NCBI GenBank assembly: GCA_016188545.1
Contig: JACPHO010000001.1
Span: 419,324-483,323 of the forward strand
From: Candidatus Shapirobacteria bacterium
Lineage (GTDB): Bacteria > Patescibacteriota > Microgenomatia > UBA12405
Length of the DNA stretch: 64,000 nt
Reading direction: 5' to 3'
The first letter of the stretch is position 1. The number at the start of each line of letters is the position of its first letter. Made by a program: the position numbers and the translations under genes. Below, piece by piece: positions 10,125 to 61,161 of this stretch. Under the pieces are notes generated by a model that was not told the origin of the DNA, did no database searches, and was given only the letters and a program-made list of their open reading frames with translations.

Positions 10125-10151
10125 TTTGCTATACTGGATTATTAGCATTTA

Positions 10152-10646: not shown

Positions 10647-10648
10647 AA

Positions 10649-12225: not shown

Positions 12226-12229
12226 TCAA

Positions 12230-33076: not shown

Positions 33077-33882
33077 AACCAAAACTTAGCATAATTATCC
33101 CCACCTGGAATACCGCCGATATTACCCTAAAGTGTATCGACACTCTTCTCAAACACACTCCAAAATGTTTTCTCCAAATAATTATAGTTGATAACGGCTC
33201 TACTGATGATACTCAACAAAAGATAGGTAAGTTAAAAGACATAACCTATGTCCGTAATGATTCTAATCTCGGTTTTAGTAAAGGTAATAACGTTGGTGCT
33301 AAAAAAGCAACTGCTGATACCTTGTTTTTTCTTAATTCCGATATGGAACTAATCGATAGCACCATTGTCGACATGGTGGAATATTTTCTTATCAATCCCA
33401 CTATTGGTTTACTTAGTCCCCGTTTTTTGAATCCCGATCTGACCCCACAAGGCTCGGTAATGCCACCTCAAAACGCCGTAAATGCATTTAAAGAGTATTG
33501 GCTGGGTCAAGAGAGCTCGTATACAAAATACACTCCGAAAACTACTTTGCCAGTACCAGTATGGGCAGTATCTGGCGGGGCAGTCATGATAAGTCTCAGC
33601 GACTACAAAAATGTTGGTGGGTGGGATGAAAAATATTTTTTTTATTACGAAGATTTAGAGCTTTGTCGTCAAATCCGCAATCTCGGAAAACAAGTCATCT
33701 ATTACCCCCAGTGCCAAGTAATTCATCGTCACGGTGCCTCTGGTACAGCGGTAGCCACTGCTCAAAACCAGTGGCGCAGACTTATTCCTAGCAGTATAAA
33801 ATATCATGGCTATTTCACCCACTATTTGATCAATGGAGTTATCTGGCTAAGTCAAAAGCTTCACTTACCCTTAACTAAGTAA
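33073..33882 (+). CDS. Glycosyltransferase family 2
   Basis: LSIIIPTWNTADITLKCI...VDNGSTDDT...LNSDM. Confidence 0.72.
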   Translation: MKPKLSIIIPTWNTADITLKCIDTLLKHTPKCFLQIIIVDNGSTDDTQQKIGKLKDITYVRNDSNLGFSKGNNVGAKKATADTLFFLNSDMELIDSTIVDMVEYFLINPTIGLLSPRFLNPDLTPQGSVMPPQNAVNAFKEYWLGQESSYTKYTPKTTLPVPVWAVSGGAVMISLSDYKNVGGWDEKYFFYYEDLELCRQIRNLGKQVIYYPQCQVIHRHGASGTAVATAQNQWRRLIPSSIKYHGYFTHYLINGVIWLSQKLHLPLTK

Positions 33883-35438
33883 AACACACTGTTCCCATAA
33901 AAATTCCGGACTGTTTTAAGCACCTCAGCATTTTCAGGAGGCTCTTTCTCCAAGTCTCTCAAACCACCGATGTTCTTTTCCTGAGAAAGTAAGTAAAGAG
34001 TCTTATCGTCCAAGTGATTGATGTCAAGATTGTTACTAAAATCCATAAAACACACCTTATCAACACAATAGTTACCCTTATCTTCTAGATCCATAATTAC
34101 TGCTGGGTCAACTCTATTCCAAAACAAATATCGAATTAGTGCCGGTTCATAAGTATTATCAATTAGTACGTGCTCATATGTATCCTTATTTTCATATACA
34201 TAACTCATCGCCGCTTTATACCCAGTATGCCACCATCGCCAAGATTCAGTCCTATAAAAACCCCAATAATAATATTGAAAAAATACAAATTCAAAAACCA
34301 ACACCAACCCCACCAGAATACGCCAATTTTTACCAATCTCTCCAATCCCTTTTGCCGCCAAATAACATAACGGAAATACCAACAAGAACAGCCTGGAACC
34401 ATGGTTATAACCATCAAAAGTCAAACTAGAAGGTATCGGCGCAATCAATAGCCATAACACCATAACTTTATTTGCACTCATTAATCCAATGATGATCAGT
34501 GGCAACATAATCCAATAGAAATAACCTACTTGATGCAGTGAATGTCTAAAGGTCACATCACCAGTTCTAAACAAGAAATCACCAGAAAATGCGTTCGAGT
34601 AATTGAACAATACTCTACGAAATGAAACGTTGTACTTGTTAAAAAAAATCTTTGAGACAAATGAAGAATTATCAGCATTACGATAATCATTGATCTGGGC
34701 GATAATCTCTTTGTTATTGGTAATAGAGACCTTTGAAAACCTCTCAGCAGCATGCCCAAAAAATATTTGGAGTATTAAAGGTAAACATATTAGTATCCCC
34801 GAAACTACCAAAATGGCAGTTTGCTTAAAACTAGCTTTATATATAAGCAATATAACAACACAGAATAATGGTACGTAAATGTTTGCTGTATTGTAGGTAT
34901 ATATTGCAACTGATAAAAGTAATGCAGCTAAAATAATTTGAGTATTTTTCTTCTCAGCTATTCCTATATGCAGAAATGTAATCCCCAATATTAAAACAGC
35001 AGCTAATAATGTCAGCTCAAATGCCGACCGGCTATATTGTATATGCCATGGAGATATTGCTAAAAACAAGACCGACAATAGAGCCACACTTTTTTTTGCT
35101 TTTAATCGAATTAACAACCAGTAAAAACCTATGATAGACAACATTCCAAAAAATACCGGACCAGTCCGTACCCCCCACTCATTTAATCCAAATAACTTTA
35201 TAAAAGGCACCATCGCATACATCATCCCCGGAGCTCTCCATTCCGAAAAGCTTTCCATGTAAGGTGGTAACAGGTTTCCTCTATAATCCCGACCATGTAA
35301 TAGTATCGAGTAGCTCTGATATCCAGCATCTACCTCGTCACCAAAAAGCTCGAGATAATCCAGTTGATACAACCGCAGTCCCATTGCCAATAGCAATATC
35401 AACACTAACCAAATATTTTTTTTGATGATACTCACCAT
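33861..35438 (-). CDS. ArnT/PMT-family GT-C membrane glycosyltransferase (DE-loop subfamily)
   Basis: FGDEVDAGYQSYSILLHGRDYRGNLLP...FIKLFGLNEWGVRTGPVFFG resembles the ArnT N-terminal loop. Confidence 0.6.
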   Translation of the reverse strand: MVSIIKKNIWLVLILLLAMGLRLYQLDYLELFGDEVDAGYQSYSILLHGRDYRGNLLPPYMESFSEWRAPGMMYAMVPFIKLFGLNEWGVRTGPVFFGMLSIIGFYWLLIRLKAKKSVALLSVLFLAISPWHIQYSRSAFELTLLAAVLILGITFLHIGIAEKKNTQIILAALLLSVAIYTYNTANIYVPLFCVVILLIYKASFKQTAILVVSGILICLPLILQIFFGHAAERFSKVSITNNKEIIAQINDYRNADNSSFVSKIFFNKYNVSFRRVLFNYSNAFSGDFLFRTGDVTFRHSLHQVGYFYWIMLPLIIIGLMSANKVMVLWLLIAPIPSSLTFDGYNHGSRLFLLVFPLCYLAAKGIGEIGKNWRILVGLVLVFEFVFFQYYYWGFYRTESWRWWHTGYKAAMSYVYENKDTYEHVLIDNTYEPALIRYLFWNRVDPAVIMDLEDKGNYCVDKVCFMDFSNNLDINHLDDKTLYLLSQEKNIGGLRDLEKEPPENAEVLKTVRNFYGNSVFYLVKGK

Positions 35439-36016
35439 ACTGCCAACACCGAAACCGCTAATGGCAACAATAAAACAATTGGCTGGGACATAACCTTAGA
35501 CATAATGTCTACAAGGCGGGTCATGACGGCACTCACACTGTTCGAATCATAATACTGAATAATATTCACAACTTCATTTTTAGTACCAACCATCAGCTTT
35601 CCGTCAACGTATTTCGTCATTACTACTTCTACTACTAAGTTTTCACCATATACTACTCCTTTTGGCAAATCTACTCTCGCATGTGATGTATCACCTAAGT
35701 TAAAACCCGAGAAATCTTTTTGAACGACTTCAGTCCCGTCAGTCTTTAATATTCTTATCTTCAGCTCATCTCTACTTTCCAAATTAGGGTTTTTAAAAAG
35801 TACATCAATCCGCTCGAGTTCACTATAGCTAGTTCGAAAACTTGTCCTAAGTAAGCGTTTTTCAGACAAGTTATCAAAATAGGTCGGATAATTCTTTGAC
35901 TCTTCAACCGACAACTTTGATGGAATAATCGCTGCCACCATAAACAATCCACCGAGTATTAGTAAGCTACCAATCAACACCGTCAGAATTCTAGAGGTTC
36001 TATCTGTTTTTTTCAC
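35432..36016 (-). CDS. Hypothetical bitopic membrane protein embedded in the GT-C operon
   Basis: TM helices at both ends with a soluble middle. Overlaps both neighbouring genes. Confidence 0.35.
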   Translation of the reverse strand: MKKTDRTSRILTVLIGSLLILGGLFMVAAIIPSKLSVEESKNYPTYFDNLSEKRLLRTSFRTSYSELERIDVLFKNPNLESRDELKIRILKTDGTEVVQKDFSGFNLGDTSHARVDLPKGVVYGENLVVEVVMTKYVDGKLMVGTKNEVVNIIQYYDSNSVSAVMTRLVDIMSKVMSQPIVLLLPLAVSVLAVW

Positions 36017-37220
36017 TTAAAACTTTCCAAAACCAATAACCACTAAGAGCTGCTGCCAAACTATGGAGTAAGTTGGAAAGTAACACCACATCCACCCCAC
36101 GTCCGATCAAAACATCACGAATTAAAGGAAGATTTAAAAGTCCATTATTCAGAGGACTCAATATTCCCCAGTACAAAAATTTATCATCAAATAATAGCAC
36201 CACTCCAAACATCACCCCCACAATCATCAATAGACTTAAAAAATCCTTGCGTCTATGTGCCAGATAGATAGACATAAACGGCAAAACCCATATAAACCAC
36301 TGGGGATGAAAATGTATGAATCCCAAAATTATTAGATTAACTGCAACCAATAACTTAACAATATCTGTTAGAGATTTTCCCACTTTTCTTCTAATAGCCA
36401 CCAGTAATAATATCCCCAGCAGTAACGGTACTATCAATACCCGATCGCCTAGTCCTATATCGATTCCTGCTTCAAACATTCGTGTCGAGAGCCCTGAATA
36501 CAGTACTTCATTTCTAAAATATTCAAATTTTAAAAACGGCGCCATTGTCAGAAAATAAACCACAACACTCGTCACCGCCAACAGGACTCTTTTCCAAACC
36601 GGAAACCTGATATATGTCATCGCCAAATATATTGCCCAAATTAGTGGATATGTTTTAATCCCTCCAGCTATTCCAAAAATGACAAAGGCCACCCAAGGGT
36701 GAGCCGCCAGTAAATACCATCCCAACATAAATGGAGTGATAGCCAGCATATCGTTCTGACCCATTAGAACAGCACTGTATAAAGTGACTGGGTTAAATAA
36801 CCAAATAGTAGCTGCCAGTCTTGATTTATATTTGTCATATCCCTGCTGCAAACAAATTTTATATATTGTCCATCCAGTCAACAGCACCATCACTAATAAT
36901 GGAATTTTTGTAGCTAAGTTATAAAGGAATATGTTTGAGTCATCAAAAGCTTCATTGGCTCCCCGCCGCAACCAGCTATCAAGACCCTCCCCGCCAAACA
37001 TTCTTACAATTGGGTATTCCGCTTTTACCACCCAGTAGTGCACCGGAGGATAGTGAAACTTTGGTGCTGCATCATAGTTTGTATTCAAATAACTATATAT
37101 ATCCCATACTTTCCCGTTTCCTAGTGTCGCGTAATATAAAACCAGTTTATTATCAGGATGATAAGTAAACGGAGCAATAAGTAGATACAGTGTCGCCGCA
37201 AATAACAATATTTTTCTCAT
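36000..37220 (-). CDS. Polytopic membrane protein, possible GT87/DUF2029-like glycosyltransferase
   Basis: 406 aa, ~10 TM segments. Weak resemblance only. Confidence 0.35.
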   Translation of the reverse strand: MRKILLFAATLYLLIAPFTYHPDNKLVLYYATLGNGKVWDIYSYLNTNYDAAPKFHYPPVHYWVVKAEYPIVRMFGGEGLDSWLRRGANEAFDDSNIFLYNLATKIPLLVMVLLTGWTIYKICLQQGYDKYKSRLAATIWLFNPVTLYSAVLMGQNDMLAITPFMLGWYLLAAHPWVAFVIFGIAGGIKTYPLIWAIYLAMTYIRFPVWKRVLLAVTSVVVYFLTMAPFLKFEYFRNEVLYSGLSTRMFEAGIDIGLGDRVLIVPLLLGILLLVAIRRKVGKSLTDIVKLLVAVNLIILGFIHFHPQWFIWVLPFMSIYLAHRRKDFLSLLMIVGVMFGVVLLFDDKFLYWGILSPLNNGLLNLPLIRDVLIGRGVDVVLLSNLLHSLAAALSGYWFWKVLSEKNR

Positions 37221-37221
37221 C

Positions 37222-38874
37222 TTATTCGATGGTTATTATTCTGGCAGTATCGTATAAAGCATTCGGTACTACCATACGTAGTTTAGCACCTGGAATTGAC
37301 TCGATCTCTTCTTTGCTCATAGTATCGTCAGTCCAAACGATTGTATTCTTCAAGAGTCTATCTTTTGGCCAGTCGATTGGTCTAAATACAAACTTTTCAA
37401 AGTTAAAGTTGAGATTTCCCTCAATACCCGGTTTTGGCCGAATATCAGCATACTTATGAACAATATTCGGATCAATTTGTTGATAAAACAATACAAATAT
37501 AAAGCTCTGGGCATGAGGAGAATCAATAATCACCTGATCATAATCTTTTGACAATTCCTTAAGTTCCATCATTCCTTCTCTAAAACCTCCAGGCTGGTAT
37601 TCCCCATGATTTTCGTAAGCACTATAAAGAAGTTCGTTATTAATTGTATAAACCACAGTTACAAACATAACTGCTGCGATGACTCCATACCAAAGTTTGT
37701 TTTTGACTAGTCTTATTATCTCCACTGCACCTAATGCCACAATTATTTCAATTGCCGGGAAAATATTTAATGATCGAAGTGGGTGATACCAAGTCCAAGT
37801 AACTGCGGCTGGAGCAATTCCAGATATCATCCAATATATAAGGTAGCGGTGGAGAAATGATTTCCTTAGGTTTTTTATAACAACTATTAATCCAAACACA
37901 AATACAATTCCCTCTATCCACCCCAACATTCCCATACCAGGAATAAATTGTGGCGACATCTTAACCCAAGCGTAGATTCGGGAGTTCAAATTTATCGGAG
38001 AAAAATATGACATTATATGTCCACTCATAATTCCGCCAAAGTAATACAAAGCATTTGAATTGATAGACAAAAAGGGATTGTTTCCTTCTACTAACTCTTT
38101 AGGTGCGTAAGGATAAAATCGTTTGAAAACATTCTCTTGGTTAAACCGTGTCAATACCAAGCTGCTGTTTGCCATAAACACCGGTATAACCATTGCAACA
38201 AATAGCGCCACCATCCACCACATTTTTTTAATCCCTTTCAAAGTGGAAGTAATCACCTCAGAAACATTTTTCGTCCAAAACCATCTTAGAGGATCGATAC
38301 CCCACAGGATAATTAGAGCCGGTACACTAAGTCTGGCTGAGTGATAACTGTATGCTGACAGTCCGAAAAATAACAAACTCCAAAATATTTTTTTATTTTT
38401 AATCAGGTAGTACGCCCCCATCATAAAAAACGCTGATGACAGGTGAGTCTCAAATGCATTTCTAGAAAAATGCAATCTCCAAGGTTCGAATGATAACCAT
38501 AAAAATATCAGACTACAAACCAATTTGTCCTTAATAAAAACCGACAATAGTTTGTACAAAAACCACAACGAGACTATTCCCGCTAATGCAGATACCATTC
38601 GAACAGCTGACTCATTCAGCCCAAAAAGTTTTATAAAAGGAACAGTTAGATAGCCATACAGTGCTGGCTTAAAATCATTAAAAGAACGTAAAGATATTGG
38701 CAAAAAATTACCATACTCATCTTTCCCAGTCAGTAATAGTGAATAGGCGTTATAACCAAGTGCCGCTTCATCAAACCCCAGTGAAGGAGGGGACTTGTCC
38801 AAACCAGTAAAACGAAGCGCGACTCCTACCACCATAGTCACCACCACAATAATCATGGCTATTTTTTTTCTCAT
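37222..38874 (-). CDS. ArnT/PMT-family GT-C membrane glycosyltransferase (DE-loop subfamily)
   Basis: GFDEAALGYNAYSLLLTGKDEYGNFLPISLRSFNDFKP...FIKLFGLNESAVRM. Confidence 0.6.
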   Translation of the reverse strand: MRKKIAMIIVVVTMVVGVALRFTGLDKSPPSLGFDEAALGYNAYSLLLTGKDEYGNFLPISLRSFNDFKPALYGYLTVPFIKLFGLNESAVRMVSALAGIVSLWFLYKLLSVFIKDKLVCSLIFLWLSFEPWRLHFSRNAFETHLSSAFFMMGAYYLIKNKKIFWSLLFFGLSAYSYHSARLSVPALIILWGIDPLRWFWTKNVSEVITSTLKGIKKMWWMVALFVAMVIPVFMANSSLVLTRFNQENVFKRFYPYAPKELVEGNNPFLSINSNALYYFGGIMSGHIMSYFSPINLNSRIYAWVKMSPQFIPGMGMLGWIEGIVFVFGLIVVIKNLRKSFLHRYLIYWMISGIAPAAVTWTWYHPLRSLNIFPAIEIIVALGAVEIIRLVKNKLWYGVIAAVMFVTVVYTINNELLYSAYENHGEYQPGGFREGMMELKELSKDYDQVIIDSPHAQSFIFVLFYQQIDPNIVHKYADIRPKPGIEGNLNFNFEKFVFRPIDWPKDRLLKNTIVWTDDTMSKEEIESIPGAKLRMVVPNALYDTARIITIE

Positions 38875-40151
38875 TTCTTTATGACTAAACCAATATCATT
38901 ACCGTATTTATAAGCTACAGTATCACGAATATTTTCTTTAGAAATCAAAGTCAGGTCTTTTGCTGGAAGCTGTGAATCCCAGTCTGAACTGAAATCGTTT
39001 TTAAACTTAGGTCCGACAAACTCACCTGCAAAACCTGCATATAGACCGTTATCGATATTACCTGTAGATAGATTGAAACTATTAAAAACAAACTTATCAG
39101 TTTTACATATATCTCCCAAATAAAACCAACAATAATTCTGGCTACTACCAATTAGCGTAGAGACATATATTTTTTCAAAATTTTCTACCCCCAGTGGTTT
39201 TATGCCCGTATACCAGTACTGATAAACTAGTGGCCGATTATCAAGCCAGAAATCAGCCCTCTTAGAAATGTCATAACTATTTACATAAGTTGCATAAAGC
39301 AATACCACCCCCACAACTGCTCCAACATACCTATTGGCAACTAATATTTTTTCAACCCCATATGCCATCAATAGTGACAAGGGTATCAGCAACAATATAA
39401 ATCTCTGATACAAAACAGTGTTTGAAAATAAAAAATCAATAAACGAAATCACCAACAAAACAACCAAAATATTGTTGGAATCATTTTTTAATTTTGAAGT
39501 AACCCAAAAATATATTCCAAATATCAAAATAAATATTTCCGGCCAATAAAATAAAACAACTGATTTTTGTTCCATTGGATGAACCTCCTGGAAATAAAGA
39601 GTTTCCAAATCAAAAAAAGGTAACAACTCAGCCAAAACCTGACGATAAGTTATAAAAAGTTTGTTATATCCAATTCTTCTCCACATAAGTGGCAATTCCA
39701 TTTTGATACGGAGCGTATCCTCAGACATAAATCTGTTATTTACTTCATTTCTAGCGTCGGACATAGTAATTTTCGACAAAATCGCCGGATTTTGTTTCAG
39801 AAAACTCACGTTATAAAAACCCAATCCCACCAATACTAGTAAAATAATCCACCACTTAGTTTTTAGGAATGTTACTACACATAGTACTAGTACCAACTTA
39901 ACTACCATCAGTGGATACGACCACCCGATCCCCCATACCGCCGGGGACATTACTAACAAAATGATCGAAATTACTGAACTTTTTACTGACGCAACTGTCC
40001 TTAACTTATTAAACCAAAACCAAAAAACAATTCCCATTAATAATATTGTCAGTATCCTCAACCACAAAAGACCAATTTCACTACCCGTTCCCGTCTTCAT
40101 CAAAATCCAAATTTGTTCTTCAGTTGGTGGATAATTAAACAGACTAATCAT
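38871..40151 (-). CDS. Polytopic membrane protein of unknown function
   Basis: 426 aa, multi-TM. ATGA-coupled to the upstream GT-C gene. Confidence 0.35.
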   Translation of the reverse strand: MISLFNYPPTEEQIWILMKTGTGSEIGLLWLRILTILLMGIVFWFWFNKLRTVASVKSSVISIILLVMSPAVWGIGWSYPLMVVKLVLVLCVVTFLKTKWWIILLVLVGLGFYNVSFLKQNPAILSKITMSDARNEVNNRFMSEDTLRIKMELPLMWRRIGYNKLFITYRQVLAELLPFFDLETLYFQEVHPMEQKSVVLFYWPEIFILIFGIYFWVTSKLKNDSNNILVVLLVISFIDFLFSNTVLYQRFILLLIPLSLLMAYGVEKILVANRYVGAVVGVVLLYATYVNSYDISKRADFWLDNRPLVYQYWYTGIKPLGVENFEKIYVSTLIGSSQNYCWFYLGDICKTDKFVFNSFNLSTGNIDNGLYAGFAGEFVGPKFKNDFSSDWDSQLPAKDLTLISKENIRDTVAYKYGNDIGLVIKK

Positions 40152-40182
40152 ATAAAGGATGGTATAAAATGAATATTATCAC

Positions 40183-41775
40183 ATGATCAGGCGATTATTA
40201 ACCATCGTTATTTTTGTCACCCTAGCCGTCTTGGCTGTCTATCCACGGATAAGTAATATTACCTCTCTTCCACCATCACTGTTTTCTGACGAAGTCGACG
40301 CTGGCTACCAGGCCAAAACTTTCAACCAAAACCATACTGACTACTTTGGCAATAAATTTCCGGTTCATTTTCAATCTTTTTCCGACTGGCGGACTTCTCT
40401 ATATATATACTCAGTGGCTGCAGTTCAGAATTTTATCTCTTCCCCAGAGTTAAGCGTCAGGCTTCCTTCAGCTATCTTTGGAATATCATCTATTGCGGTA
40501 TTTTTTCTACTAACTAAGTCCATTCCCGCGGCTTTTCTTTTAGCCATTTCTCCCTGGGCTATTCACTATAGTCGCACCGGATTTGAGGTACCCGGAATGC
40601 TATTGAGTCTCTTAACAGGAATATATTTTTGGGAAAAGCATCATCAGAAGCGCAACACAATCCTACTTATAATTTCTATGATTGCCTTTTCACTTTCGGC
40701 CTACTTTTATAGCACCGCCAAACTTTTTATTATTTTTCTGATACCACTTTGCTATCATATTTGGAAACCAAAAACAAAATCACTGATGATCTCCCTTATG
40801 GTGGTTCTTGTAGCGCTTTCTCCACTGGCTATCGACACTATTAAGGGACGGTCTGGCTATCGCTTTTCTTACATCAGTATCTTTACGCTGCCTCATCGCG
40901 AACAGATAACCAACACTCAAAGATATCAAGACATTCTCCTAGAACATCCCAACGAAGTTGGCGTTCCCACCCCACCCCTGTCTTACATCTTTCACAACAA
41001 ATACCAACTAGTGCTCGAACGATTTATCAAAAATTATCTTATATCTTTCTCTCCCGAATTTTTATTTATAGAAGGGGACAAAAACATCCGCCAAGGCTTT
41101 GGCCAACATGGCATGCTCTACGTACTCGACTTTTTTATAATACTCTATGGTCTTTATCTTCACTTTCATAAACCTACTTCTCTGGGCAAGCTTTTTTTTT
41201 GGATGCTCGTCTTGGGACCAATTCCTTTTGCCTTAACTCGTGATTCACTTGGACCTCACGCCACCCGCCTCATTATTATTCTTCCTTCCCTAGTTTACTT
41301 CTCTTCTCTTACCCTTCACAAAATTCCTCTTATTACCCCCATATATTTATTACTCTTTATAAATTTTTGGCATTACTATCAAAACCATTATCCCCAGCTA
41401 TCCGCTAGAACATGGCATACCAATCTAAAAGAAACTGTTTTAGCTACCAATAATTATCCTAAACACCAAATATATTTCTCTGACACAGCCGAACCATTTA
41501 TGCCTTTTTTCCTATATTACTATCCATATCTCCCCACTGATTCCCTCACTTCTCATCTCACCGAAGTGAAATCACCTTATTTTTCCGGTAAGTGTATCGA
41601 CAGTAAGTATTGTTTTGGGCAGATAGACCCGTCTTTCTTTCCACTAACAGCACCACCCTCTCTACTAGTTGTCCCTCAATCACAACAATTTATTCCACCT
41701 ACTGGGTTTACACTTATTAATACTATTCCAAAAAAGTATCAGGAAAGTGAAATATTCTATATCTACTCAAATTAA
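40183..41775 (+). CDS. ArnT/PMT-family GT-C membrane glycosyltransferase (DE-loop subfamily; contains T9 tract)
   Basis: LFSDEVDAGYQAKTF...SVRLPSAIFG. T9 run at 41192-41200. Confidence 0.6.
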   Translation: MIRRLLTIVIFVTLAVLAVYPRISNITSLPPSLFSDEVDAGYQAKTFNQNHTDYFGNKFPVHFQSFSDWRTSLYIYSVAAVQNFISSPELSVRLPSAIFGISSIAVFFLLTKSIPAAFLLAISPWAIHYSRTGFEVPGMLLSLLTGIYFWEKHHQKRNTILLIISMIAFSLSAYFYSTAKLFIIFLIPLCYHIWKPKTKSLMISLMVVLVALSPLAIDTIKGRSGYRFSYISIFTLPHREQITNTQRYQDILLEHPNEVGVPTPPLSYIFHNKYQLVLERFIKNYLISFSPEFLFIEGDKNIRQGFGQHGMLYVLDFFIILYGLYLHFHKPTSLGKLFFWMLVLGPIPFALTRDSLGPHATRLIIILPSLVYFSSLTLHKIPLITPIYLLLFINFWHYYQNHYPQLSARTWHTNLKETVLATNNYPKHQIYFSDTAEPFMPFFLYYYPYLPTDSLTSHLTEVKSPYFSGKCIDSKYCFGQIDPSFFPLTAPPSLLVVPQSQQFIPPTGFTLINTIPKKYQESEIFYIYSN

Positions 41776-41776
41776 A

Positions 41777-43360
41777 ATGTTCAAAAAATTTAATCTTGTA
41801 CTACTAATCCCACTACTTTTCGCACTTCTGGCATCACATCGTTTATGGCGTCCCGGTTATTTTAGTATGCAGGATGATATGCACGTCTTCAGGCTCTCTC
41901 AATTTCACCAATGTCTCCTTGACCGCCAAATACCTTGTCGACTGATTTCCGATGGGGGACTGGGCTACTCTTATCCTCTGTTCAATTTCTATTCTCCACT
42001 ACCTTATGCAGTGGCTGAAAGTTTTCATCTAGTCGGTTTTTCGCTTATCGATAGTCTAAAGATATCTTTTATCATTCCGTTTTTTGTTGGTTCAGTCGGA
42101 ATGTATCTACTCTCTTTTACATTTTTTGGTCCAGTCGGTGGGCTTATTAGTAGTGTCCTTTATACCTTCGCTCCCTACCATGCTCTCGACAGTTTTGTCC
42201 GAGGTGCTCTAGCAGAACACTGGGCTATAAACCTCCTCCCGCTAATTCTCTATTCACTTTATCGCAAAAAATCAAATCTTTTTATATTGTCACTCACAGC
42301 CCTTCTACTAAGTCACAACCTAACCCTGGTCTATTTCCTTCCGGTATTGTTTGTCTTTTCCTTAATCCACAAAAACATTTTATATCTCATCAAAAATTCG
42401 TTGTACTCATTTTTAATGGCATCCTTTTTTATTCTTCCCGCTTTTCTTGAGAAAAACTTAACTACCGTGAGCACTATGACTCAAGGCTATTTTAATTACA
42501 TCATTCACTTTGCCACTCTTTACCAACTGTTTGTTTCCCGGTTCTGGGGTTATGGCGCTTCGCTTTGGGGTCCGATTGATGATCTCTCGCTTCAGGTAGG
42601 ATATCTTCATTGGATACTCCCACTCATTGCTCTAATTTTTGCTATACGTTCTCCTAGCAAAAAAACTATCTTTACTTTTTTTAGTATCGGACTATTCTCA
42701 CTTTTTCTGACACACAACCGTTCCACTTTCATCTGGCAAATGTTTTATTTTATGCCTTATTACCAGTTTCCTTGGCGTTTCTTGGGCTTAGCCATATTCT
42801 GTTTCTCGTTCATTTCTGGGATAGTTACCAAAAGCAAATTTCTTCTCGTCATAATTATTGCCCTAACCGTAGGACTAAATATCAATTACTTCAAAGAAGA
42901 TATTTGGTATCCCAACCTGACGGATAGTCAAAAACTTACCACTGAGGAAGTTTATCGTCAAAGTGGCGCAGGTTTAAAAGACTACTGGCCCAAATATTCC
43001 ACAGAGTTTCCCACTACCATGGCACCTTCACAGCCACAAGTTCTCAACGGTGAAATTTATGCCAGTGACTTCTTCAAGAATTCAAATATTGCCAGCGGTT
43101 CTATTAATATCACTTCCGAAAAAGCCACCATCAATCTCCCTATCGTTTATTTTCCAACCTGGCAGCTAACTGTTAACGGCTATCCATCAGAATACCAAGT
43201 CAACCCATCCACTGGCCAAATGCAACTAACTCTGCCTCAAGGCAGTCACCAGTATAAACTCGAATTCTTAAATACCCCCATCCGCACTTTTGCCAACGTC
43301 CTTAGCCTTATTGGTCTGCTCTTGTTTATAATCAAACTATATCGTGAAGCCAAATCATAA
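41777..43360 (+). CDS. Large polytopic membrane protein, YfhO-like/GT-C candidate (paralog of 19968..21659)
   Basis: MQDDMHVFRLSQFHQCLLDRQIPCRLISDGGLGYSYPLFNFYSPLPYAV. Start taken at the ATG at 41777 rather than the upstream in-frame extension. Confidence 0.5.
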   Translation: MFKKFNLVLLIPLLFALLASHRLWRPGYFSMQDDMHVFRLSQFHQCLLDRQIPCRLISDGGLGYSYPLFNFYSPLPYAVAESFHLVGFSLIDSLKISFIIPFFVGSVGMYLLSFTFFGPVGGLISSVLYTFAPYHALDSFVRGALAEHWAINLLPLILYSLYRKKSNLFILSLTALLLSHNLTLVYFLPVLFVFSLIHKNILYLIKNSLYSFLMASFFILPAFLEKNLTTVSTMTQGYFNYIIHFATLYQLFVSRFWGYGASLWGPIDDLSLQVGYLHWILPLIALIFAIRSPSKKTIFTFFSIGLFSLFLTHNRSTFIWQMFYFMPYYQFPWRFLGLAIFCFSFISGIVTKSKFLLVIIIALTVGLNINYFKEDIWYPNLTDSQKLTTEEVYRQSGAGLKDYWPKYSTEFPTTMAPSQPQVLNGEIYASDFFKNSNIASGSINITSEKATINLPIVYFPTWQLTVNGYPSEYQVNPSTGQMQLTLPQGSHQYKLEFLNTPIRTFANVLSLIGLLLFIIKLYREAKS

Positions 43361-44921
43361 ACTGCTCTTCTGGACAATTCTATTACTGGCCGCTTTTTTC
43401 CGCTTATGGAAATTAGATACCATGCCATCAGGATTAAATTGGGATGAAATTTCTCATGGATACAACGCTTATTCAGTCCTAGAGACAGGACGTGATCAGT
43501 GGGGGACTTCGCTTCCTATTTTTAACTTTAGAGCCTATGGCGATTATCCCACCACCCTAAATCTATACCTCACCATTCCTTTCATTAAGTTACTCGGCCT
43601 AAACGCACTTTCGATCCGTATACCGACTGTTATTTTCTCGTTGTTATTCGTAATCTATACCTATCGCTTTGCACAGTTATTATTCAAAAAGATCCCACCC
43701 TCACTCATCGCCATGTCTTTAGCCGCTTTCCTACCTTGGGCATTTTTCCCTTCTCGTGGTGTTTTTCAGTCCACTTTTTCCCAAACGCTACTTCTGATGG
43801 GTATTTATCACTTTCTAATCGATAAAAACCGGTCCAAGCATTTACTCCTCTCAAGTATTTTTTTTGGACTTTCGATGTATGCCTATCATAACGCCAGGAT
43901 AATTGTTCCTTTACTACTTCCAACTCTATATTTTTTTCACCCAATTAAATTATCTAAAAAAATATTACCCGCAATTATTGTTCTGTTAATACTAGTCATT
44001 CCCAACGTTATTAATCTAATTTCACCTTCCTCCTTTGCTCGCAATCGCTGGGTCGGTATTATCAATCCCAACGCAGTTAATCTAATCAATCTTAAGCGAA
44101 ACTCATTTACCGGCCCGCAAATTATAAATCGACTAATCAACAACCGACCGGTTTATTTTGTTCAAACTCTGTCACTAAACTATCTCAATCAACTTAATCC
44201 TTTTCCTTTATTTTTAAATGGCACCGAAAACCAACAACTATCCGTGCCTCAGACTGGTATTTTATTTCTAATTCTTATGCCATTTTTATATGCCGGACTT
44301 ATTTTCTCACTAAACGACGGACGCTATTTCTATCTACTCCCACTATTATTTATAACCCTACTTCCTGCGGCACTCACCGTCGGTGACTTTCCAGTCCTCA
44401 GATCTAGCACAGCCCTAATTTTTTATATTCTATTCATAACCATAGGGATATCCCTTCTTAAAATTGATTATCGGATAACCATACTAACTATTTTCGTATT
44501 TTTCATATTTTATTGGACAAAATACACAAATTACAGTCAAAAATATTCTTACGCCTGGCAATACGGCTATAGTCAAGCTGTTGAAATTGCCAAAGAAAAT
44601 TATTCGAAATACGACCATATTGTTATAACTAAAAAGTATGGTGAACCGCACGAGTTTTTCCTGTTTTACTGGCCATGGCCTCCGCAGAAGTATCAAAAAG
44701 ACCCCTTACTCTCAACTAATTTTCATTCAGATTGGTACTGGGTAGATGCCTATGATAAGTTTGAATTCAAAAATGACTGGGAAATTAAAGAACTAAATTT
44801 TTCTCCCAAAACTCTACTAATCACCAGCCCAAAAAACTATCCCTCTAATGGAGCCAAACAGTTAAAAACCATTGACTTCCTCGATAGTTCGCCAGCGTTT
44901 GATATCATCAGCTATGACTAG
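43344..44921 (+). CDS. ArnT/PMT-family GT-C membrane glycosyltransferase (DE-loop subfamily)
   Basis: LNWDEISHGYNAYSVLETGRDQWGTSLP...FIKLLGLNALSIRIPTVIFS. Confidence 0.6.
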   Translation: MKPNHKLLFWTILLLAAFFRLWKLDTMPSGLNWDEISHGYNAYSVLETGRDQWGTSLPIFNFRAYGDYPTTLNLYLTIPFIKLLGLNALSIRIPTVIFSLLFVIYTYRFAQLLFKKIPPSLIAMSLAAFLPWAFFPSRGVFQSTFSQTLLLMGIYHFLIDKNRSKHLLLSSIFFGLSMYAYHNARIIVPLLLPTLYFFHPIKLSKKILPAIIVLLILVIPNVINLISPSSFARNRWVGIINPNAVNLINLKRNSFTGPQIINRLINNRPVYFVQTLSLNYLNQLNPFPLFLNGTENQQLSVPQTGILFLILMPFLYAGLIFSLNDGRYFYLLPLLFITLLPAALTVGDFPVLRSSTALIFYILFITIGISLLKIDYRITILTIFVFFIFYWTKYTNYSQKYSYAWQYGYSQAVEIAKENYSKYDHIVITKKYGEPHEFFLFYWPWPPQKYQKDPLLSTNFHSDWYWVDAYDKFEFKNDWEIKELNFSPKTLLITSPKNYPSNGAKQLKTIDFLDSSPAFDIISYD

Positions 44922-46503
44922 GTTTGCAATTATTATCATTACAGTTCTAGCCCTAGCAGTTCGACTCTATAGCTCAAACTACCCCCCATTACTTTGGGAC
45001 GAAGCTTCTATCGGCTACAATGCTTACTCCATCCTTAAAACAGGCAAAGACGAATACGGCACTACTCTACCTCTAGTTTTCAAATCATTTGGTGATTACA
45101 AACCAGGATTATATGTCTATCTCACTGTTCCTTTTGTCGCCTTATTTGGTCTAAACTCCTTGTCGGTTAGACTACCATCGATCATCCTCGGATCACTACT
45201 TCCCCTAATTGCCTACCTACTTGTTCTAAAACTTAGTCCAAAATCAAAAACTATCGCACTACTAACCGCCATTCTTTTAGCCTTCAACCCTTGGAATATT
45301 CACTTTAGTCGGGGAGCGTGGGAGACCAATATCCTTTTATTTGAACTGACCCTAGCTTCACTACTATTTATCAATCAAAAAATAGTCTGGTCCTCCATTA
45401 TGTTTGGTCTTACTTTTTACACCTACCAAGGAGGGAAGATCATGACCCCTCTTTTATTGTCAATTCTTTTCTTTACCCATCTATCTCTTTTCAAATCTTT
45501 CAAAAACATCTTTAAACTCGCCCTTCCTCTGATATTACTAGCTGTTCCCATCCTCTACGGACTTGTAACTCAAAACGATTCCAATCGTCTTAGCGTGTTT
45601 GCACTCTGGAACTACCACCGTCCCGCAAATGACATTAGTCAGATCGTCGGTGAAGGCAATGATCTTAACTTCTCGTTATTTCACAACGAAGCTATCTTTT
45701 TTACTCAAAATTTTTTAACTCGTTACTTCAACCATTTCTCACCAAAGTTTTTATTGTTTGAGGGCGACTGGCAAATCCAACGCCACTCTGCCCCGTATAT
45801 CGGAGTAATTCTCTATCCATCAATTATCTTTATTCTTCTAGGGATATTCTCTACTCTGTCTACATCGCTCAAAAAACCTGGCTTAATATTCTTTCTTTGG
45901 CTTCTCATTAGCCCACTTCCCGGAGCCTTAACGCGGGACATTATTCAACCCGTCAGAACTCTTTCCTTATCTATTCCCCTAATGTATTTTGCCGCCAAAG
46001 GCATTGTCTTTACCCTTAGTAAAATTCCTCAAAAACTATATCATTTTTTTTACTTTTTACTTTTTACTTTTTACTTTTTTTCTTTTGTCTATTACTCCGA
46101 CCTATATTACAATCACCTGACCAAAATCACCCCCTCACATTTACTTTACGGTTATAGCCAAGCAGCCCAGTATGTGATTGATCGTGGTAAAGACAAGCAA
46201 GTCACCTTTACAGATTTTTATGGTCAGCCATATATCTATTATCTTTTTTACTCCAAGTATCCACCTAAAAACTATCAGTCTCAGGCCAATCTTTCAGTCT
46301 CAGGCCAAGATACTGGAAAAATATTAAAGATAGACAATATTAAGTTTGAAGTCCCCAGTTTCAGCTACCAAAAAACACTACCAGGCCAAGTATTAATCCT
46401 TTCCTATGATGACGCCATTAGGCAGGGGATTGATCTAAAAACCCTTACTCCACTAAGTCCCATCAACAATACCTCAACATTTTACGCATATGAAACAAAC
46501 TAA
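44914..46503 (+). CDS. ArnT/PMT-family GT-C membrane glycosyltransferase (DE-loop subfamily; contains 7-bp tandem repeat)
   Basis: LWDEASIGYNAYSILKTGKDEYGTTLP...FGLNSLSVRLPSIILG. Start at 44914 (ATGACTAG overlap). ACTTTTT x4 at 46052-46079. Confidence 0.6.
   Translation: MTRFAIIIITVLALAVRLYSSNYPPLLWDEASIGYNAYSILKTGKDEYGTTLPLVFKSFGDYKPGLYVYLTVPFVALFGLNSLSVRLPSIILGSLLPLIAYLLVLKLSPKSKTIALLTAILLAFNPWNIHFSRGAWETNILLFELTLASLLFINQKIVWSSIMFGLTFYTYQGGKIMTPLLLSILFFTHLSLFKSFKNIFKLALPLILLAVPILYGLVTQNDSNRLSVFALWNYHRPANDISQIVGEGNDLNFSLFHNEAIFFTQNFLTRYFNHFSPKFLLFEGDWQIQRHSAPYIGVILYPSIIFILLGIFSTLSTSLKKPGLIFFLWLLISPLPGALTRDIIQPVRTLSLSIPLMYFAAKGIVFTLSKIPQKLYHFFYFLLFTFYFFSFVYYSDLYYNHLTKITPSHLLYGYSQAAQYVIDRGKDKQVTFTDFYGQPYIYYLFYSKYPPKNYQSQANLSVSGQDTGKILKIDNIKFEVPSFSYQKTLPGQVLILSYDDAIRQGIDLKTLTPLSPINNTSTFYAYETN
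46052..46079. repeat. Perfect heptanucleotide tandem repeat (ACTTTTT)x4 inside a GT-C CDS
   Basis: Read directly: tac ttttt ac ttttt ac ttttt ac ttttt, preceded by a T7 run. Encodes FYFLLFTFYFF. Confidence 0.8.
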
Positions 46504-48094
46504 AATATTTTTACTACTAATACTACTTTTAGCTGCTGTCCTTCGCATATATCGTATCGACACCCTACCTCAACTAAATCCTGATGAAGCAGCGCTTGGT
46601 TACAACGCCTATTCTTTGCTGAAGACCGGTAAAGACGAGCATGGTATCAGCTACCCTCTCCATTTCCGCTCTTTTGGTGACTACAAACCGGGAGGCTACG
46701 TATATCTAGCCATGCCTTTTATAAAGATTTTAGGGCTTACTCCACTGGCCGTCCGTCTACCCAATTTAATTTTCTCTGTTTTAACTATATTTGTTATTTA
46801 TAAACTTGTTTTTCTTTTAACTTTTAACTTTCAACTTTCAACTTTGACCGCCTTTATTTTAGCGGTCAGCCCTTGGCACATCCACTTTAGTCGTGGCGCC
46901 TGGGAGTCTTCAACTGCCCTGTTTTTTGTAATCCTTGGTATCTATTTGTTCTATTCATACATCATAAATCATAAGTCAAGATTCTTTTTCTTCTCATGCC
47001 TCTCTTTTGTCGCCTCACTCTACGTCTATCACTCGGCTCGTATCGTCGCTCCGTTTATTTGTCTTTTTCTACTGGTCACTAATTTTCAATTTTTACTAAG
47101 TCATTTCAAAAAGATTATTCTCCCCACACTTTTTGCTGCAGCAGTCGCTGTTCCAGTACTTGTCTCATTTCTGAACAGTGGTGGCGCTGCCAGATTTGGT
47201 GGGGTAGGATTAACCGCTGACTATGGACCAGTCGCACGCTCAGAAGAATTACTAAATCACCACGGCAACACACTTTTATCCAACCGGATAACTCACAATC
47301 GACGGGTTTTATATCTAATGTCTTGGGCTCAAAAATATGTTTCTCATTTTGATCTTAATTTTCTTTTTCTCAAAGGTGATGAAGTCCCTAGGTCAAAGTC
47401 GCCCGACATTGGCCAGCTCCACTTAATTGAGCTACCTTTATTAATTATCGGTATTGTTTTTCTCCTCAAAGACAAAAATACCAAACGACTTTCCCATCTT
47501 TCGCTGGCACTACTCTTTATATCTCCGCTGGCATCGTCGCTCACTTTTCAAGCCCCATCAGCTCTTCGAGCCTTACCCATGGTCTTACCATTAGCAATTT
47601 TTACAGGTGCCGGTCTTTATAGTCTTATTGAAACCACAAAATCATTTAAGCCACACAACTTATTCGTCATCACCGTTCTCTACATTTATTCCATTTTCTA
47701 CTTTGCCGACGCTTACTTTGTTCATGCTCCCCAACGCTATCCATATGCCTGGAACACTGGCTTCTCTAGCCTGATGCCTTTTATTGATAGTCAAAAGACA
47801 AAATATGACAATATCTACTTCACCTCCACATATGATCAACCTTATATTTTGTATTTATTTTTTACCCGCTATCCGCCTCAAAAAATACAATCTCAAATCC
47901 AGCTAACCCCACCCGATAAATACGGTTTTTCAACAGTAACCATGATAGATAATCTCCATTTTGGTAAAATCAACTGGGATTCCATTCCTCCCAAGAGTTT
48001 AGTAATCGCCGGCGATGAAGAAATAAAAGCTGTACCAATGGCATCTTTAGTTCTTCCCGGAGGAACTATCGGATTCAGAGTTTATGAAAAATAA
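46490..48094 (+). CDS. ArnT/PMT-family GT-C membrane glycosyltransferase (DE-loop subfamily; contains imperfect 7-bp tandem repeat)
   Basis: NPDEAALGYNAYSLLKTGKDEHGISYP...FIKILGLTPLAVRLPNLIFS. 7-mer repeat at 46814-46848. Confidence 0.6.
   Translation: MKQTKIFLLLILLLAAVLRIYRIDTLPQLNPDEAALGYNAYSLLKTGKDEHGISYPLHFRSFGDYKPGGYVYLAMPFIKILGLTPLAVRLPNLIFSVLTIFVIYKLVFLLTFNFQLSTLTAFILAVSPWHIHFSRGAWESSTALFFVILGIYLFYSYIINHKSRFFFFSCLSFVASLYVYHSARIVAPFICLFLLVTNFQFLLSHFKKIILPTLFAAAVAVPVLVSFLNSGGAARFGGVGLTADYGPVARSEELLNHHGNTLLSNRITHNRRVLYLMSWAQKYVSHFDLNFLFLKGDEVPRSKSPDIGQLHLIELPLLIIGIVFLLKDKNTKRLSHLSLALLFISPLASSLTFQAPSALRALPMVLPLAIFTGAGLYSLIETTKSFKPHNLFVITVLYIYSIFYFADAYFVHAPQRYPYAWNTGFSSLMPFIDSQKTKYDNIYFTSTYDQPYILYLFFTRYPPQKIQSQIQLTPPDKYGFSTVTMIDNLHFGKINWDSIPPKSLVIAGDEEIKAVPMASLVLPGGTIGFRVYEK
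46814..46848. repeat. Imperfect heptanucleotide tandem repeat (CTTTTAA/CTTTCAA/CTTTGAC)x5 inside the next GT-C CDS
   Basis: cttttaa cttttaa ctttcaa ctttcaa ctttgac. Confidence 0.7.
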
Positions 48095-49001
48095 CACCCC
48101 ACTTTCCATTGCCATTGCCACATATAATGAATCAGCCAATATCGGTCGTTGTCTAAAAAGCATCGAGGGGCTGGCAAGTGAAATCATAATTGTTGATGGA
48201 CAATCTACCGACGACACTGTGGCTATTGCCAAAAAATACCCGTCTATTAAGGTCATATCGACGACCAACAAACCAAACTTTCACATCAATAAACAGATGG
48301 CCATTGATGAGTGTAAAAACGATTGGGTACTTCTACTCGACGCTGACGAAGCAGTCTCAAAAGAACTTTTTGCAGAAATAAAAAAACTTCTAACCCTCAG
48401 TACCGAAAAAATTGTAGAAGAGTCTAATGCTGTTTTACAATCCCATCCTTTATTTTTACGACATCAACAAATACTTCAGGACAGAGACGGTGAATATGGC
48501 TCTAAGTCAAACGAATACACGGCATTTTTTGTTCCTCGACTAAACTATTTTCTAGGAAGGTTTATCCGCTACGGAGGTGTCTATCCCGATGGCCAAATCC
48601 GACTTTTTAGAAAAAGTGTTAGTCATCAACCAGCTAAGGACGTCCATGAACAAATTCATACTGACGGTCGTGTCGGTTGGTTAAGTTCTGACCTACTCCA
48701 TTTTGCCGACCCCACCTTTTCTAGGTATCTTTTAAGAAATAGTCGCTATACCTCAAATATAGCCACTGAGTTACAAGAAAAGAAACTCCCCATCTCTTTT
48801 ATTTCGTTTTTAAATTATTTTATGGTTAAACCAATTTGGTGGTTTGTACTTACCTACTTTCGACACAAAGGGATCCTTGATGGTTTTTCCGGTTTTGTCT
48901 TCTCCTGGTATTCATCACTCCGTTTCCCGATTGCCTATATAAAATATTTTGAACTCACATCCACCAACCAAAAAATAACTGTTGGCAAGGACTGGGATTA
49001 A
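48084..49001 (+). CDS. Glycosyltransferase family 2
   Basis: LSIAIATYNESANIGRCLKSI...IIVDGQSTDDT...LLLDADE. Confidence 0.72.
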   Translation: MKNNTPLSIAIATYNESANIGRCLKSIEGLASEIIIVDGQSTDDTVAIAKKYPSIKVISTTNKPNFHINKQMAIDECKNDWVLLLDADEAVSKELFAEIKKLLTLSTEKIVEESNAVLQSHPLFLRHQQILQDRDGEYGSKSNEYTAFFVPRLNYFLGRFIRYGGVYPDGQIRLFRKSVSHQPAKDVHEQIHTDGRVGWLSSDLLHFADPTFSRYLLRNSRYTSNIATELQEKKLPISFISFLNYFMVKPIWWFVLTYFRHKGILDGFSGFVFSWYSSLRFPIAYIKYFELTSTNQKITVGKDWD

Positions 49002-49002
49002 C

Positions 49003-50157
49003 ATGAGTAAAATTTTTAGGATCGCTATCGATGTTTCACCTTTAAATGACGGCAACTCCAAAAGGGGGGTGGGTTTTTATACTCGCAACCTGGTTAGCTC
49101 TCTCAAAGAAGAAATTAAATTAAACCCCTTATATAAAAACTTCGAAATTGTTCTAATTGAAAATTGTAAATTCCTGCCTGCCGGCAGGCAGGGTAAAATT
49201 AAAAATTATGACCTGGTTCATTATCCCTATTTTGATCCGTTCTATCTCACTCTCCCCACCAAAAAAGATATCCCTCAAATAATCACCATTCATGACCTAA
49301 TACCCATCCAATTCAAGCAACATTTTCCCTCCGGCATAAGAGGGTTCCTTAAGTGGCAAATTCAAAAACATAAAGCTAAGCAGTCAGATTACATCATTAC
49401 AGTTTCAAATTATTCCAAATATGTCATCGCTGAAAGTCTAGGATTTGCTGCAGATAAAATATACGTGACTTACGAGGGAGCCACCCCTGATTTTAAGAAG
49501 ATCATAGATCACAAAAAGTTATCTCAAATCAAAAAAAAATATAAATTACCTGAAGAGTTTGTTTTTTACACTGGCGATATAAATTGGAATAAAAACATTC
49601 CCTCATTAGTTAAAGCATGCATCGACCTAAACTACCCATTGGTTATCGCCGGTAAACAGGCAATCGATATCGACAATCTCAAACTTGAAAAACCAAGTAT
49701 AGCTAGACCCATGGACTTATTTAGACACTTGTTAGATATTCCCAGTCCTCAGTTAAAACATTTAACAACCCTAAAAAAAATATTTCATAGTCCGCTGGTT
49801 TATAGATTAGGGTTTGTTGATAGTGAAGATTTACCTTTTCTATATAACTTAGCTACAATTTACTGCCAACCTTCATATGCAGAAGGCTTTGGACTTTGCC
49901 CACTGGAAGCTATGCAGTCCGGCACTCCAGTTGTTTACAGTTCTGATACCAGTCTCCCTGAGATCATGGGTGAAGCTGGTATATCATTTAATCCGTATAG
50001 TACTGATGGTCTGATCAGTTCACTCAAAAAACTCTGGATTGACAAAACCTTACAAGACCAACAAATTAAAATGGGTATTAATCGCTCCAAGTTTTTCTCC
50101 TGGAAACAAACAGCCAAGCAAACCTTAGCAGTTTATGACTTAGCTCTCAGTCGATGA
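49003..50157 (+). CDS. Glycosyltransferase family 4 (GT-B)
   Basis: EGFGLCPLEAMQSGTPVV motif. Start taken at the ATG at 49003, just after the upstream stop. Confidence 0.72.
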   Translation: MSKIFRIAIDVSPLNDGNSKRGVGFYTRNLVSSLKEEIKLNPLYKNFEIVLIENCKFLPAGRQGKIKNYDLVHYPYFDPFYLTLPTKKDIPQIITIHDLIPIQFKQHFPSGIRGFLKWQIQKHKAKQSDYIITVSNYSKYVIAESLGFAADKIYVTYEGATPDFKKIIDHKKLSQIKKKYKLPEEFVFYTGDINWNKNIPSLVKACIDLNYPLVIAGKQAIDIDNLKLEKPSIARPMDLFRHLLDIPSPQLKHLTTLKKIFHSPLVYRLGFVDSEDLPFLYNLATIYCQPSYAEGFGLCPLEAMQSGTPVVYSSDTSLPEIMGEAGISFNPYSTDGLISSLKKLWIDKTLQDQQIKMGINRSKFFSWKQTAKQTLAVYDLALSR

Positions 50158-58412: not shown

Positions 58413-58431
58413 AGCTATATAATATCAGAGT

Positions 58432-59625: not shown

Positions 59626-59710
59626 ATACACAGACTTAAAGATTATTTATCTAAAACGCTTATCTCTTACGCTCTAACGTTCTAATGATCTAAAGTTCTA
59701 TCTCGTTCTA

Positions 59711-61159: not shown

Positions 61160-61161
61160 TG

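Follow-up and report, generated by a model that had tools for sequence, protein, structure and literature searches.

A 64,000-nucleotide stretch of a Candidatus Shapirobacteria genome (the window) carries an array of genes that an earlier note, made from the sequence alone, had described as ArnT- or PMT-like glycosyltransferases of the GT-C type, expanded by recent serial duplication. Here we show that the array is instead old, keeps its gene order and occurs throughout the class. Its genes, named below by their lower coordinate in the window, very probably encode GT-C glycosyltransferases that are ancient and conserved paralogs, and there is an even chance that these act as a specialised assembly line on an envelope glycan; for the overall explanation, which blends the two, we put the probability at roughly 0.7. 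The GT-C type, its Asp–Glu (DE) loop and the use of polyprenyl-phosphate donors are textbook knowledge, and several of the genes already carry a GT39 label in GenBank. A literature search that combined the candidate phyla radiation (CPR), Microgenomates, Shapirobacteria and Woesebacteria with GT-C-type enzymes found no description of these arrays.

A subfamily of GT-C proteins with a conserved acidic loop

The eight open reading frames (ORFs) singled out earlier (18503, 29448, 33861, 37222, 40183, 43344, 44914 and 46490) are present where they had been placed, as are the two quoted peptides, FGDEAIYLRW in 18503–19966 and LWDEASIGYNAYS in 44914–46503. All eight proteins have the acidic DE dipeptide that had been claimed for them: in an alignment of ten window paralogs the Asp is the sole invariant internal column, it is followed by Glu in each of the eight, and the dipeptide lies 8–12 residues past the first hydrophobic helix in every protein. 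Six of them (33861, 37222, 40183, 43344, 44914 and 46490), all of similar length (525–550 amino acids), form a real subfamily, with BLASTP E values of 1e-18 to 1e-70 among themselves and of only 1e-4 to 1e-16 against 18503 and 29448, although ‘tight’, the word used for it, overstates identities of 24–34%. The first half of the extended motif ascribed to the six, DE...GY[NQ].[YK][ST]...D..G..P, occurs exactly in these and in no others; the PFIKLxGLN half is missing from 40183, whose first loop is the most divergent, and three members have DY or DQ in place of the second DE. Judged by sequence, the pattern that the six share is far beyond chance. The count of eight was too low, because 16249 is a ninth PMT_2 protein, 14795 a weak tenth and 38871 a truncated eleventh, and three PTPS/YfhO-like GT-Cs and one GT87/PimE-like GT-C (36000) lie in the island beyond those. 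The four genes said to stand in tandem are in fact five, with a PTPS_related gene (41777–43360) between 40183 and 43344.

Pfam and fold comparison bear out the proposed ArnT/PMT-like GT-C identity. An AlphaFold2 model of the 46490 protein, built from 35 sequences, reached a mean predicted local distance difference test score (pLDDT) of 85.8 and a predicted template-modelling score (pTM) of 0.88, and has a predicted GT-C fold. When it was compared with the PDB by Foldseek, ranks 1–37 were all GT-Cs (PglB, STT3, ArnT, Pmt4, ALG9/12, Emb and AftA), and ArnT (5F15) was the only near end-to-end match, with a TM score of 0.52 on both lengths over 523 columns. The model ends in an alpha/beta domain of about 110 residues. 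The Pfam family PMT_2 (PF13231, cutoff 26.1 bits) is matched above cutoff by 18503 (55.3), 29448 (47.0), 16249 (40.6), 43344 (37.4), 33861 (36.9) and 46490 (28.7). Just under it fall 44914 (25.9 bits, but 41.7 for Pfam PMT), 40183 (25.8) and 37222 (21.7), which are tied to other members by BLASTP at E values of 1e-26 to 1e-46. Pfam PMT (PF02366) exceeds 22.7 bits in 29448, 33861, 44914 and 46490, with alignments that are partial on its 245-position model. No MIR, TPR or PMT_4TMC domain was detected in any of the eight (Pfam E ≤ 0.01), and the best score against the ArnT equivalog NF009784 (cutoff 567) was 19.6 bits, for 33861. The proteins belong to the GT-C superfamily and to Pfam PMT_2; because the ArnT equivalog failed and the MIR and 4TMC modules are missing, we file them neither as ArnT nor as bona fide PMTs. 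An Agl23-type ‘flippase-associated’ role, whose model TIGR03663 was the best in NCBIfam (24–43 bits against a cutoff of 126), was not adopted, given the strict conservation of the catalytic DE loop.

Conservation of the loop extends well beyond this genome, so that neither of the two outcomes named in the earlier note as refuting its reading, no GT-C fold and no loop conservation in homologs, was observed. A profile of the six paralogs, run against 1.84 billion cluster representatives, matched 6,244 clusters at 50% identity with E ≤ 1e-30. Among the best 150 matches, mutually less than 50% identical, 144 have Asp and 6 have Glu at D32, all 150 keep E33, D49, R89 and R135, and 149 keep R360. 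In the literature the DE motif is described as the catalytic hallmark of PMT/ArnT-type GT-Cs (Pmt1 D77/E78, Mycobacterium tuberculosis Pmt D55/E56 and ArnT D55; PMC8698208), and D55/E56 of 5EZM have been aligned with D77/E78 of 6P25 (PMC7801869). By this correspondence, the Asp–Glu with which the loop following the first transmembrane helix (TM1) opens would occupy the catalytic position as in ArnT, PMT and other GT-Cs, and homology together with N-terminal Lys/Arg residues would place the loop on the outside face.

Age, gene order and selection

Recent serial tandem duplication would leave adjacent genes of similar length, most of them on the same strand, and the subfamily genes have this layout. 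We nevertheless consider that origin, which the earlier note had favoured, extremely improbable, because the paralogs are only 24–34% identical, each is closer to its positional ortholog elsewhere, and the resulting clades span Woesebacteria. One genome, L002 (GCA_049287145), has the same gene order as the window array; its orthologs of 40183, 41777, 43344, 44914 and 46490 are 51, 51, 64, 65 and 69% identical, and the next-best window paralog for each reaches only 29–34%. The more distant L003 keeps the last three paralogs at 39–56%. DNA repeats within 33–49 kb likewise tell against a recent event, being confined to stretches of 60–65 nucleotides at 65–82% identity over conserved motifs.

A scan of GTDB species representatives with an ortholog-rich alignment found at least 541 loci, of which 80 were retrieved. 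Apart from one Parcubacteria record, two generic titles and about 38 ‘TPA_asm’ metagenome-assembled genomes (MAGs) titled uncultured Gammaproteobacteria or Pseudomonadales, these records bear the names Shapirobacteria, Woesebacteria, Collierbacteria, Microgenomates or Patescibacteria. Every one of the 43 other-genome loci of at least 20 kb holds two to seven subfamily genes (mode 5) when the 10 kb upstream of the 46490 ortholog are counted. Single orthologs were found in 81 loci for 46490, 60 for 43344 and 52 for 44914. In a neighbour-joining tree of 53 subfamily members from nine genomes, these three form separate clades, each of which holds both Woesebacteria and Shapirobacteria, and 36 positions are universally conserved across the three clades, 18 of them in the 65-residue first loop. 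The duplications are older than the split between Shapirobacteria and Woesebacteria.

The ‘TPA_asm’ MAGs (for example, L005, L009, L012, L014 and L017) carry 46490 orthologs at 39–65% identity, and those of their loci that are long enough to assess also hold the GT-C array seen in Shapirobacteria and Woesebacteria. The Gammaproteobacteria and Pseudomonadales names of these records are probably wrong.

A second proposal of the earlier note was that the set serves surface variation, as a repertoire of alternative, interchangeable or fast-diversifying enzymes that alter the glycan coat. Many paralogs of a surface-glycan enzyme do stand in one locus, their number varies from two to seven, and 72 members from other genomes have no assigned counterpart among the window paralogs. 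Selection on the genes makes this improbable. The ratio of non-synonymous to synonymous substitution (dN/dS) was estimated by the Nei–Gojobori method between the window and a close strain, L084, whose array GT-C genes are 87–97% identical in amino-acid sequence; orthologs were used in place of paralogs because synonymous sites are saturated at 24–34% amino-acid identity. Values of 0.044–0.143 for the GT39-like genes and 0.14 for the PTPS-like gene are no higher than those of neighbouring GT2, GT4 and radical S-adenosylmethionine (radical-SAM) genes (0.02–0.13 where dS could be estimated), and every copy is under purifying selection. Moreover, each of the last three paralogs keeps one ortholog per locus in 52–81 genomes in a fixed order, no invertible elements or repeats suited to recombination were found, and scans for promoters and terminators returned counts at or below shuffle expectation. 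Low dN/dS together with one ortholog per locus favours non-redundant, individually maintained functions. The earlier suggestion that every paralog may contribute a sugar or linkage of its own would fit such old paralogs, which are retained one by one as 1:1 orthologs.

Synonymous divergence from L084 is mosaic (37222–57792): dS is 0.36–0.47 for most of the GT-C array, 0.62–0.83 for 46490 and 41777, and above 1.1 or saturated from about 49 kb on. Because of this pattern, a recombination boundary inside the island is suggested.

A possible assembly line and its genomic setting

Three small GT2 proteins (14065, 17752 and 50154), which group together by BLASTP, could supply polyprenyl-phosphate-sugar donors, to judge from their relatives (Table 1). 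The nearest solved relatives of 14065 are ArnC (1.7e-15), GtrB/sll0501 (7e-15) and DPMS (5e-13), and in NCBIfam it aligns at full length, below threshold, to ArnC, dolichyl-P-hexose transferase and PpgS. For 17752 the nearest are GtrB/sll0501 (4e-9) and DPMS (8e-8), and 50154 is PpgS-like in NCBIfam, again at full length and below threshold. The gene 14065 lies directly 5′ of the GT-C-like gene 14795, and 17752 overlaps the start of the GT-C gene 18503. As a control, the GT2 protein 48084 matches the peptide or protein glycosyltransferases SunS, ThuS and GmaR and not ArnC, GtrB or DPMS. It adjoins the 46490 ortholog in 78 loci and has the island paralogs 24756 and 26623.

We propose that the three small GT2s would load sugars onto polyprenyl phosphate at the cytoplasmic face, that the lipid-linked sugars would then be flipped over the membrane, and that each GT-C paralog would transfer its sugar to a different acceptor position at the outer face. 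The likely acceptor would be an envelope glycopolymer or a lipid-linked glycan, with a core made by the nine other GT2s and four GT4s of the island and exported by the Wzx-like flippase 21641. The array would then represent non-redundant, specialised steps and not interchangeable recent copies.

Several points weigh against such an assembly line. No initiating phosphoglycosyltransferase was found among the window ORFs of at least 150 amino acids. The clade-specific conserved residues that might set specificity number just nine, with no clear cluster and four of them in the C-terminal domain. None of the NCBIfam equivalogs is reached, the best scores being 20–43 bits against cutoffs of 126–567. 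Searches of PDB sequences with the subfamily profile and with the 44914 protein gave no match even at E ≤ 1–10, and because these were empty it is by fold comparison only that the array is linked to solved GT-Cs. Finally, a protein acceptor like that of PMT is just as conceivable.

That last point leads to an unlikely but substantive alternative, that the paralogs would be strict PMT-type protein O-glycosyltransferases, each modifying its own secreted, S-layer or pilus proteins on Ser/Thr instead of extending a polysaccharide or lipid-linked glycan. The proteins, however, carry no MIR, TPR or PMT_4TMC domain, the only near end-to-end solved match of the model is ArnT, which has a lipid acceptor, and the island, in which 16 GT2/GT4 genes accompany a Wzx flippase, is of a polysaccharide type. 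Where a PMT is known in bacteria, furthermore, there is usually one copy and not six to ten. Because of the island context and the missing MIR and TPR modules, we prefer a polymer or lipid-linked acceptor, and rate it about twice as highly as protein O-glycosylation in the strict sense.

The truncated paralog 38871 raises the further question of whether some of these proteins work in pairs. The protein has neither TM1 nor the greater part of the first loop, EE stands where others have the catalytic DE, and its hidden Markov model (HMM) alignment spans subfamily positions 147–397. Its orthologs in 11 loci likewise have a shortened loop without the Asp, with TM1 retained in some. Because an Asp-to-Glu change at the Asp of the DE motif inactivates Streptomyces coelicolor Pmt and ArnT (PMC8698208), the sequence of 38871 suggests that it is probably non-catalytic, and it may be a non-catalytic partner subunit. 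Hetero-oligomeric complexes like Pmt1–Pmt2 or EmbA–EmbB, with 38871 as the non-catalytic partner of 37222, are somewhat unlikely on present evidence. In support of this idea, purifying selection acts on 38871 (dN/dS 0.12) although it is without the catalytic loop, its neighbour is a minus-strand member of the subfamily in those loci where the subfamily profile scored it, and the solved relatives include the heterodimers EmbA–EmbB and Pmt1–Pmt2; adjacency alone, however, is no proof of a complex.

Taken together, these elements allow a fuller picture that we advance tentatively, as a conjecture weaker than the assembly line itself. A co-linear cassette of five to seven specialised GT39-like paralogs, a conserved but catalytically degenerate paralog, and PTPS/YfhO-like and PimE-like GT-Cs, vertically inherited in Microgenomates (Shapirobacteria and Woesebacteria), may form an extracytoplasmic assembly line, possibly of hetero-oligomers, for a complex, lineage-specific envelope glycan on a par in enzymatic complexity with mycobacterial arabinogalactan or lipoarabinomannan (LAM).

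The genes concerned lie in an almost unbroken glycan island of about 50 kb, from 14,065 to the window end, preceded in bases 1–13,300 by housekeeping genes (SecA C-terminus, BipA, release factor, LCP-family protein, FtsE/FtsX and M23 peptidase). The island encodes 12 GT2s, four GT4s, one Wzx-type flippase, many large polytopic membrane proteins, four radical-SAM enzymes (three with a B12-binding domain) and several methyltransferases; its GT-C-like proteins number about 15, in three families. In GenBank, where ten other window proteins have locus tags from HYV64_02630 to HYV64_02735, the 46490–48094 protein is a ‘glycosyltransferase family 39 protein’ (100% identity), 16249 is likewise GT39, 44914 is a ‘phospholipid carrier-dependent glycosyltransferase’, and 37222, 38871, 14795, 19968, 41777, 23074 and 30920 are ‘hypothetical’.

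Table 1. Coordinates of the GT-C-like genes, candidate donor synthases and associated genes in the window
Feature	Coordinates	Strand	Evidence
Small GT2, candidate polyprenyl-phosphate sugar synthase	14065..14793	+	Pfam Glycos_transf_2 6e-33
Probable distant PMT_2-like GT-C, DQ after TM1	14795..16234	+	BLASTP 3e-7 to 16249, 2e-4 to 33861
Ninth PMT_2 GT-C, DQ for DE	16249..17721	-	PMT_2 3.9e-10, 40.6 bits (cutoff 26.1)
Small GT2, candidate polyprenyl-phosphate sugar synthase	17752..18513	+	Pfam GT2 1e-21; paralog of 14065, E 6e-18
PMT_2 GT-C, DE (FGDEAIYLRW), outside the six	18503..19966	+	PMT_2 1.2e-14; DE at residue 35
PTPS_related/YfhO-like polytopic protein, GT-C-like	19968..21659	+	Pfam PF10131 7e-8
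Wzx-type polysaccharide flippase	21641..23098	+	Pfam Polysacc_synt_3 2.7e-45
PMT_2/PMT GT-C, DE	29448..30920	+	PMT_2 4e-12, PMT 1.7e-5; subfamily HMM 105 bits
YfhO/PTPS-like polytopic protein, 718 aa	30920..33076	+	No Pfam match, hhalign only
Subfamily paralog 1 (DEVDAGYQSYS)	33861..35438	-	PMT_2 5e-9, PMT 3.5e-6; BLASTP 1e-27 to 5e-46 to other five
Bitopic 194-aa protein	35432..36016	-	Aligns to residues 418–602 of 614-aa homolog P0318, E 3e-19
GT87/PimE/PIG-M-like GT-C, different GT-C class	36000..37220	-	Structure; invariant H-P-D after TM1
Subfamily paralog 2 (DEAALGYNAYS)	37222..38874	-	PMT_2 21.7 bits; BLASTP 8e-43 to 44914; dN/dS 0.044
Truncated subfamily paralog (PPTEEQ, no Asp)	38871..40151	-	hhalign 99.1% to subfamily positions 83–513
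Subfamily paralog 3 (DEVDAGYQAKT)	40183..41775	+	PMT_2 25.8 bits; BLASTP 9e-46 to 33861
PTPS_related GT-C-like, inside the ‘tandem four’	41777..43360	+	Pfam PF10131 weak, 18.3 bits; NCBI start 41777
Subfamily paralog 4	43344..44921	+	PMT_2 3.9e-9
Subfamily paralog 5	44914..46503	+	Pfam PMT 1.3e-10; NCBI start also 44914
Subfamily paralog 6	46490..48094	+	Last array gene; protein used for structure model
GT2 downstream of array	48084..49001	+	Nearest solved SunS, ThuS, GmaR, N-terminal 100 residues only
Third small GT2, candidate polyprenyl-phosphate sugar synthase	50154..50966	+	DPMS 1e-9, then ArnC and GtrB

Outside the six, 29448 is the nearest outgroup of the subfamily. The evidence for 14795 is weak: it has the Asp in the invariant column and about 11 hydrophobic segments, and Pfam PMT_2 matches it only at an E value of 1.2. 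Low-threshold Pfam searches on the unannotated membrane proteins returned nothing useful; 38871, 41777, 19968 and 30920 were placed by hhalign and 36000 by structure. By hhalign, the PTPS_related family matches the GT39-like subfamily core at 94% and 30920 at 98%, and 30920 matches the PTPS_related family at 98% and the subfamily core at 83%. A homolog of 30920 at the equivalent position in L003 is assigned to Pfam YfhO. The proteins 19968 and 41777 (ORF 41669–43360) are paralogs of 36% identity, and a homolog of 41777 lies within the array in 31 loci. Structure comparison makes 36000 PimE/PIG-M/ALG3-like. It overlaps 35432 by 17 nucleotides, and the two correspond to a single protein of 600–650 amino acids in other Microgenomates, in which 35432 is the C-terminal extracytoplasmic domain fused to the 36000 homolog. 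Shorter homologs of about 400 amino acids, equivalent to 36000 by itself, are frequent among the closest matches, those annotated as Shapirobacteria included, so that a genuine split is more probable than a frameshift.

Directly 3′ of the Wzx-like flippase gene, 23074–24759 (plus strand) encodes a protein of 561 amino acids with about 12 hydrophobic segments, no Pfam or NCBIfam match and one homolog only among the retrieved loci; candidate identities are a Wzy-type polymerase or ligase and a further GT-C. The radical-SAM genes (51962, 54136, 59711 and 62821, the first three with the B12-binding domain) are interleaved across 51962–63966 with FkbM-type and class I methyltransferase genes and GT2/GT4 genes, and may serve C-methylation or other unusual sugar tailoring of the same glycan. 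The G+C content of the window is about 38%, and its GC skew is negative in every 2-kb bin (-0.06 to -0.32; cumulative -6.28), minus-strand gene stretches included. This is the same pattern as the whole-chromosome strand G/C disparity described for the Microgenomates order UBA1400 (PMC7143001), in a genome paper whose sole remark on such enzymes is ‘29 genes of glycosyl transferases’.

Implications and comparison with known systems

Patescibacteria (CPR) have minimal genomes and mostly uncharacterised envelopes, and here about 50 kb is given to glycan synthesis. A complement of about 15 GT-C enzymes is on the scale of that of mycobacteria, and a class-wide core array under purifying selection suggests that the cells have a conserved surface coat of complex glycan or glycoprotein. 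If the assembly line is real, the glycan would probably be central to envelope integrity or host attachment, because the organism has a genome of about 1 Mb and almost no other biosynthesis. The subfamily is large, with a sharp signature motif and no characterised member, so a single biochemical assignment would annotate thousands of proteins.

Compared with solved enzymes, ArnT (GT83, undecaprenyl-phosphate-L-Ara4N:lipid A transferase; 5EZM/5F15) is only 11–13% identical to the window proteins; it is normally a single gene and acts on lipid A, whereas here there are 6–10 paralogs in a Patescibacteria genome. Unlike the GT39 PMTs (yeast Pmt1/2/4 and those of M. tuberculosis and S. coelicolor), the window proteins are without MIR and PMT_4TMC modules, and the extended motif DExxxGYNAYSxLxTGKDExG is specific to their subfamily. 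The pairing of a GtrB-like GT2 gene 5′ of a GT-C gene (14065 with 14795, 17752 with 18503) resembles three-component systems (GtrA/GtrB/GtrC, CsbB/YfhO and GtcA/GtlA/GtlB), and YfhO/PTPS-like proteins are present in the island as in CsbB/YfhO. The window yielded no small flippase of the GtrA type, however, and whereas three-component systems add a single decorating sugar, many GT-Cs are chained here in one locus.

In mycobacteria, embC–embA–embB and Aft/PimE are adjacent GT-C paralogs that form distinct, non-redundant linkages, using decaprenyl-phosphate sugars for envelope polysaccharide outside the membrane. Structures of Emb, AftA, AftB, AftD and PimE are all among the fold matches, and a PimE-like gene (36000) is embedded in the array. 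The Emb proteins differ in being about 1,100 amino acids long, with large carbohydrate-binding domains, and share 9–15% identity with the window proteins; the window array is the longer (5–7 genes), and the genome that carries it measures no more than about 1 Mb. By analogy, then, the closest functional counterparts of the array would be the mycobacterial embCAB/Aft/PimE enzymes or the ALG3/9/12/6/8/10 enzymes of the endoplasmic reticulum lumen.

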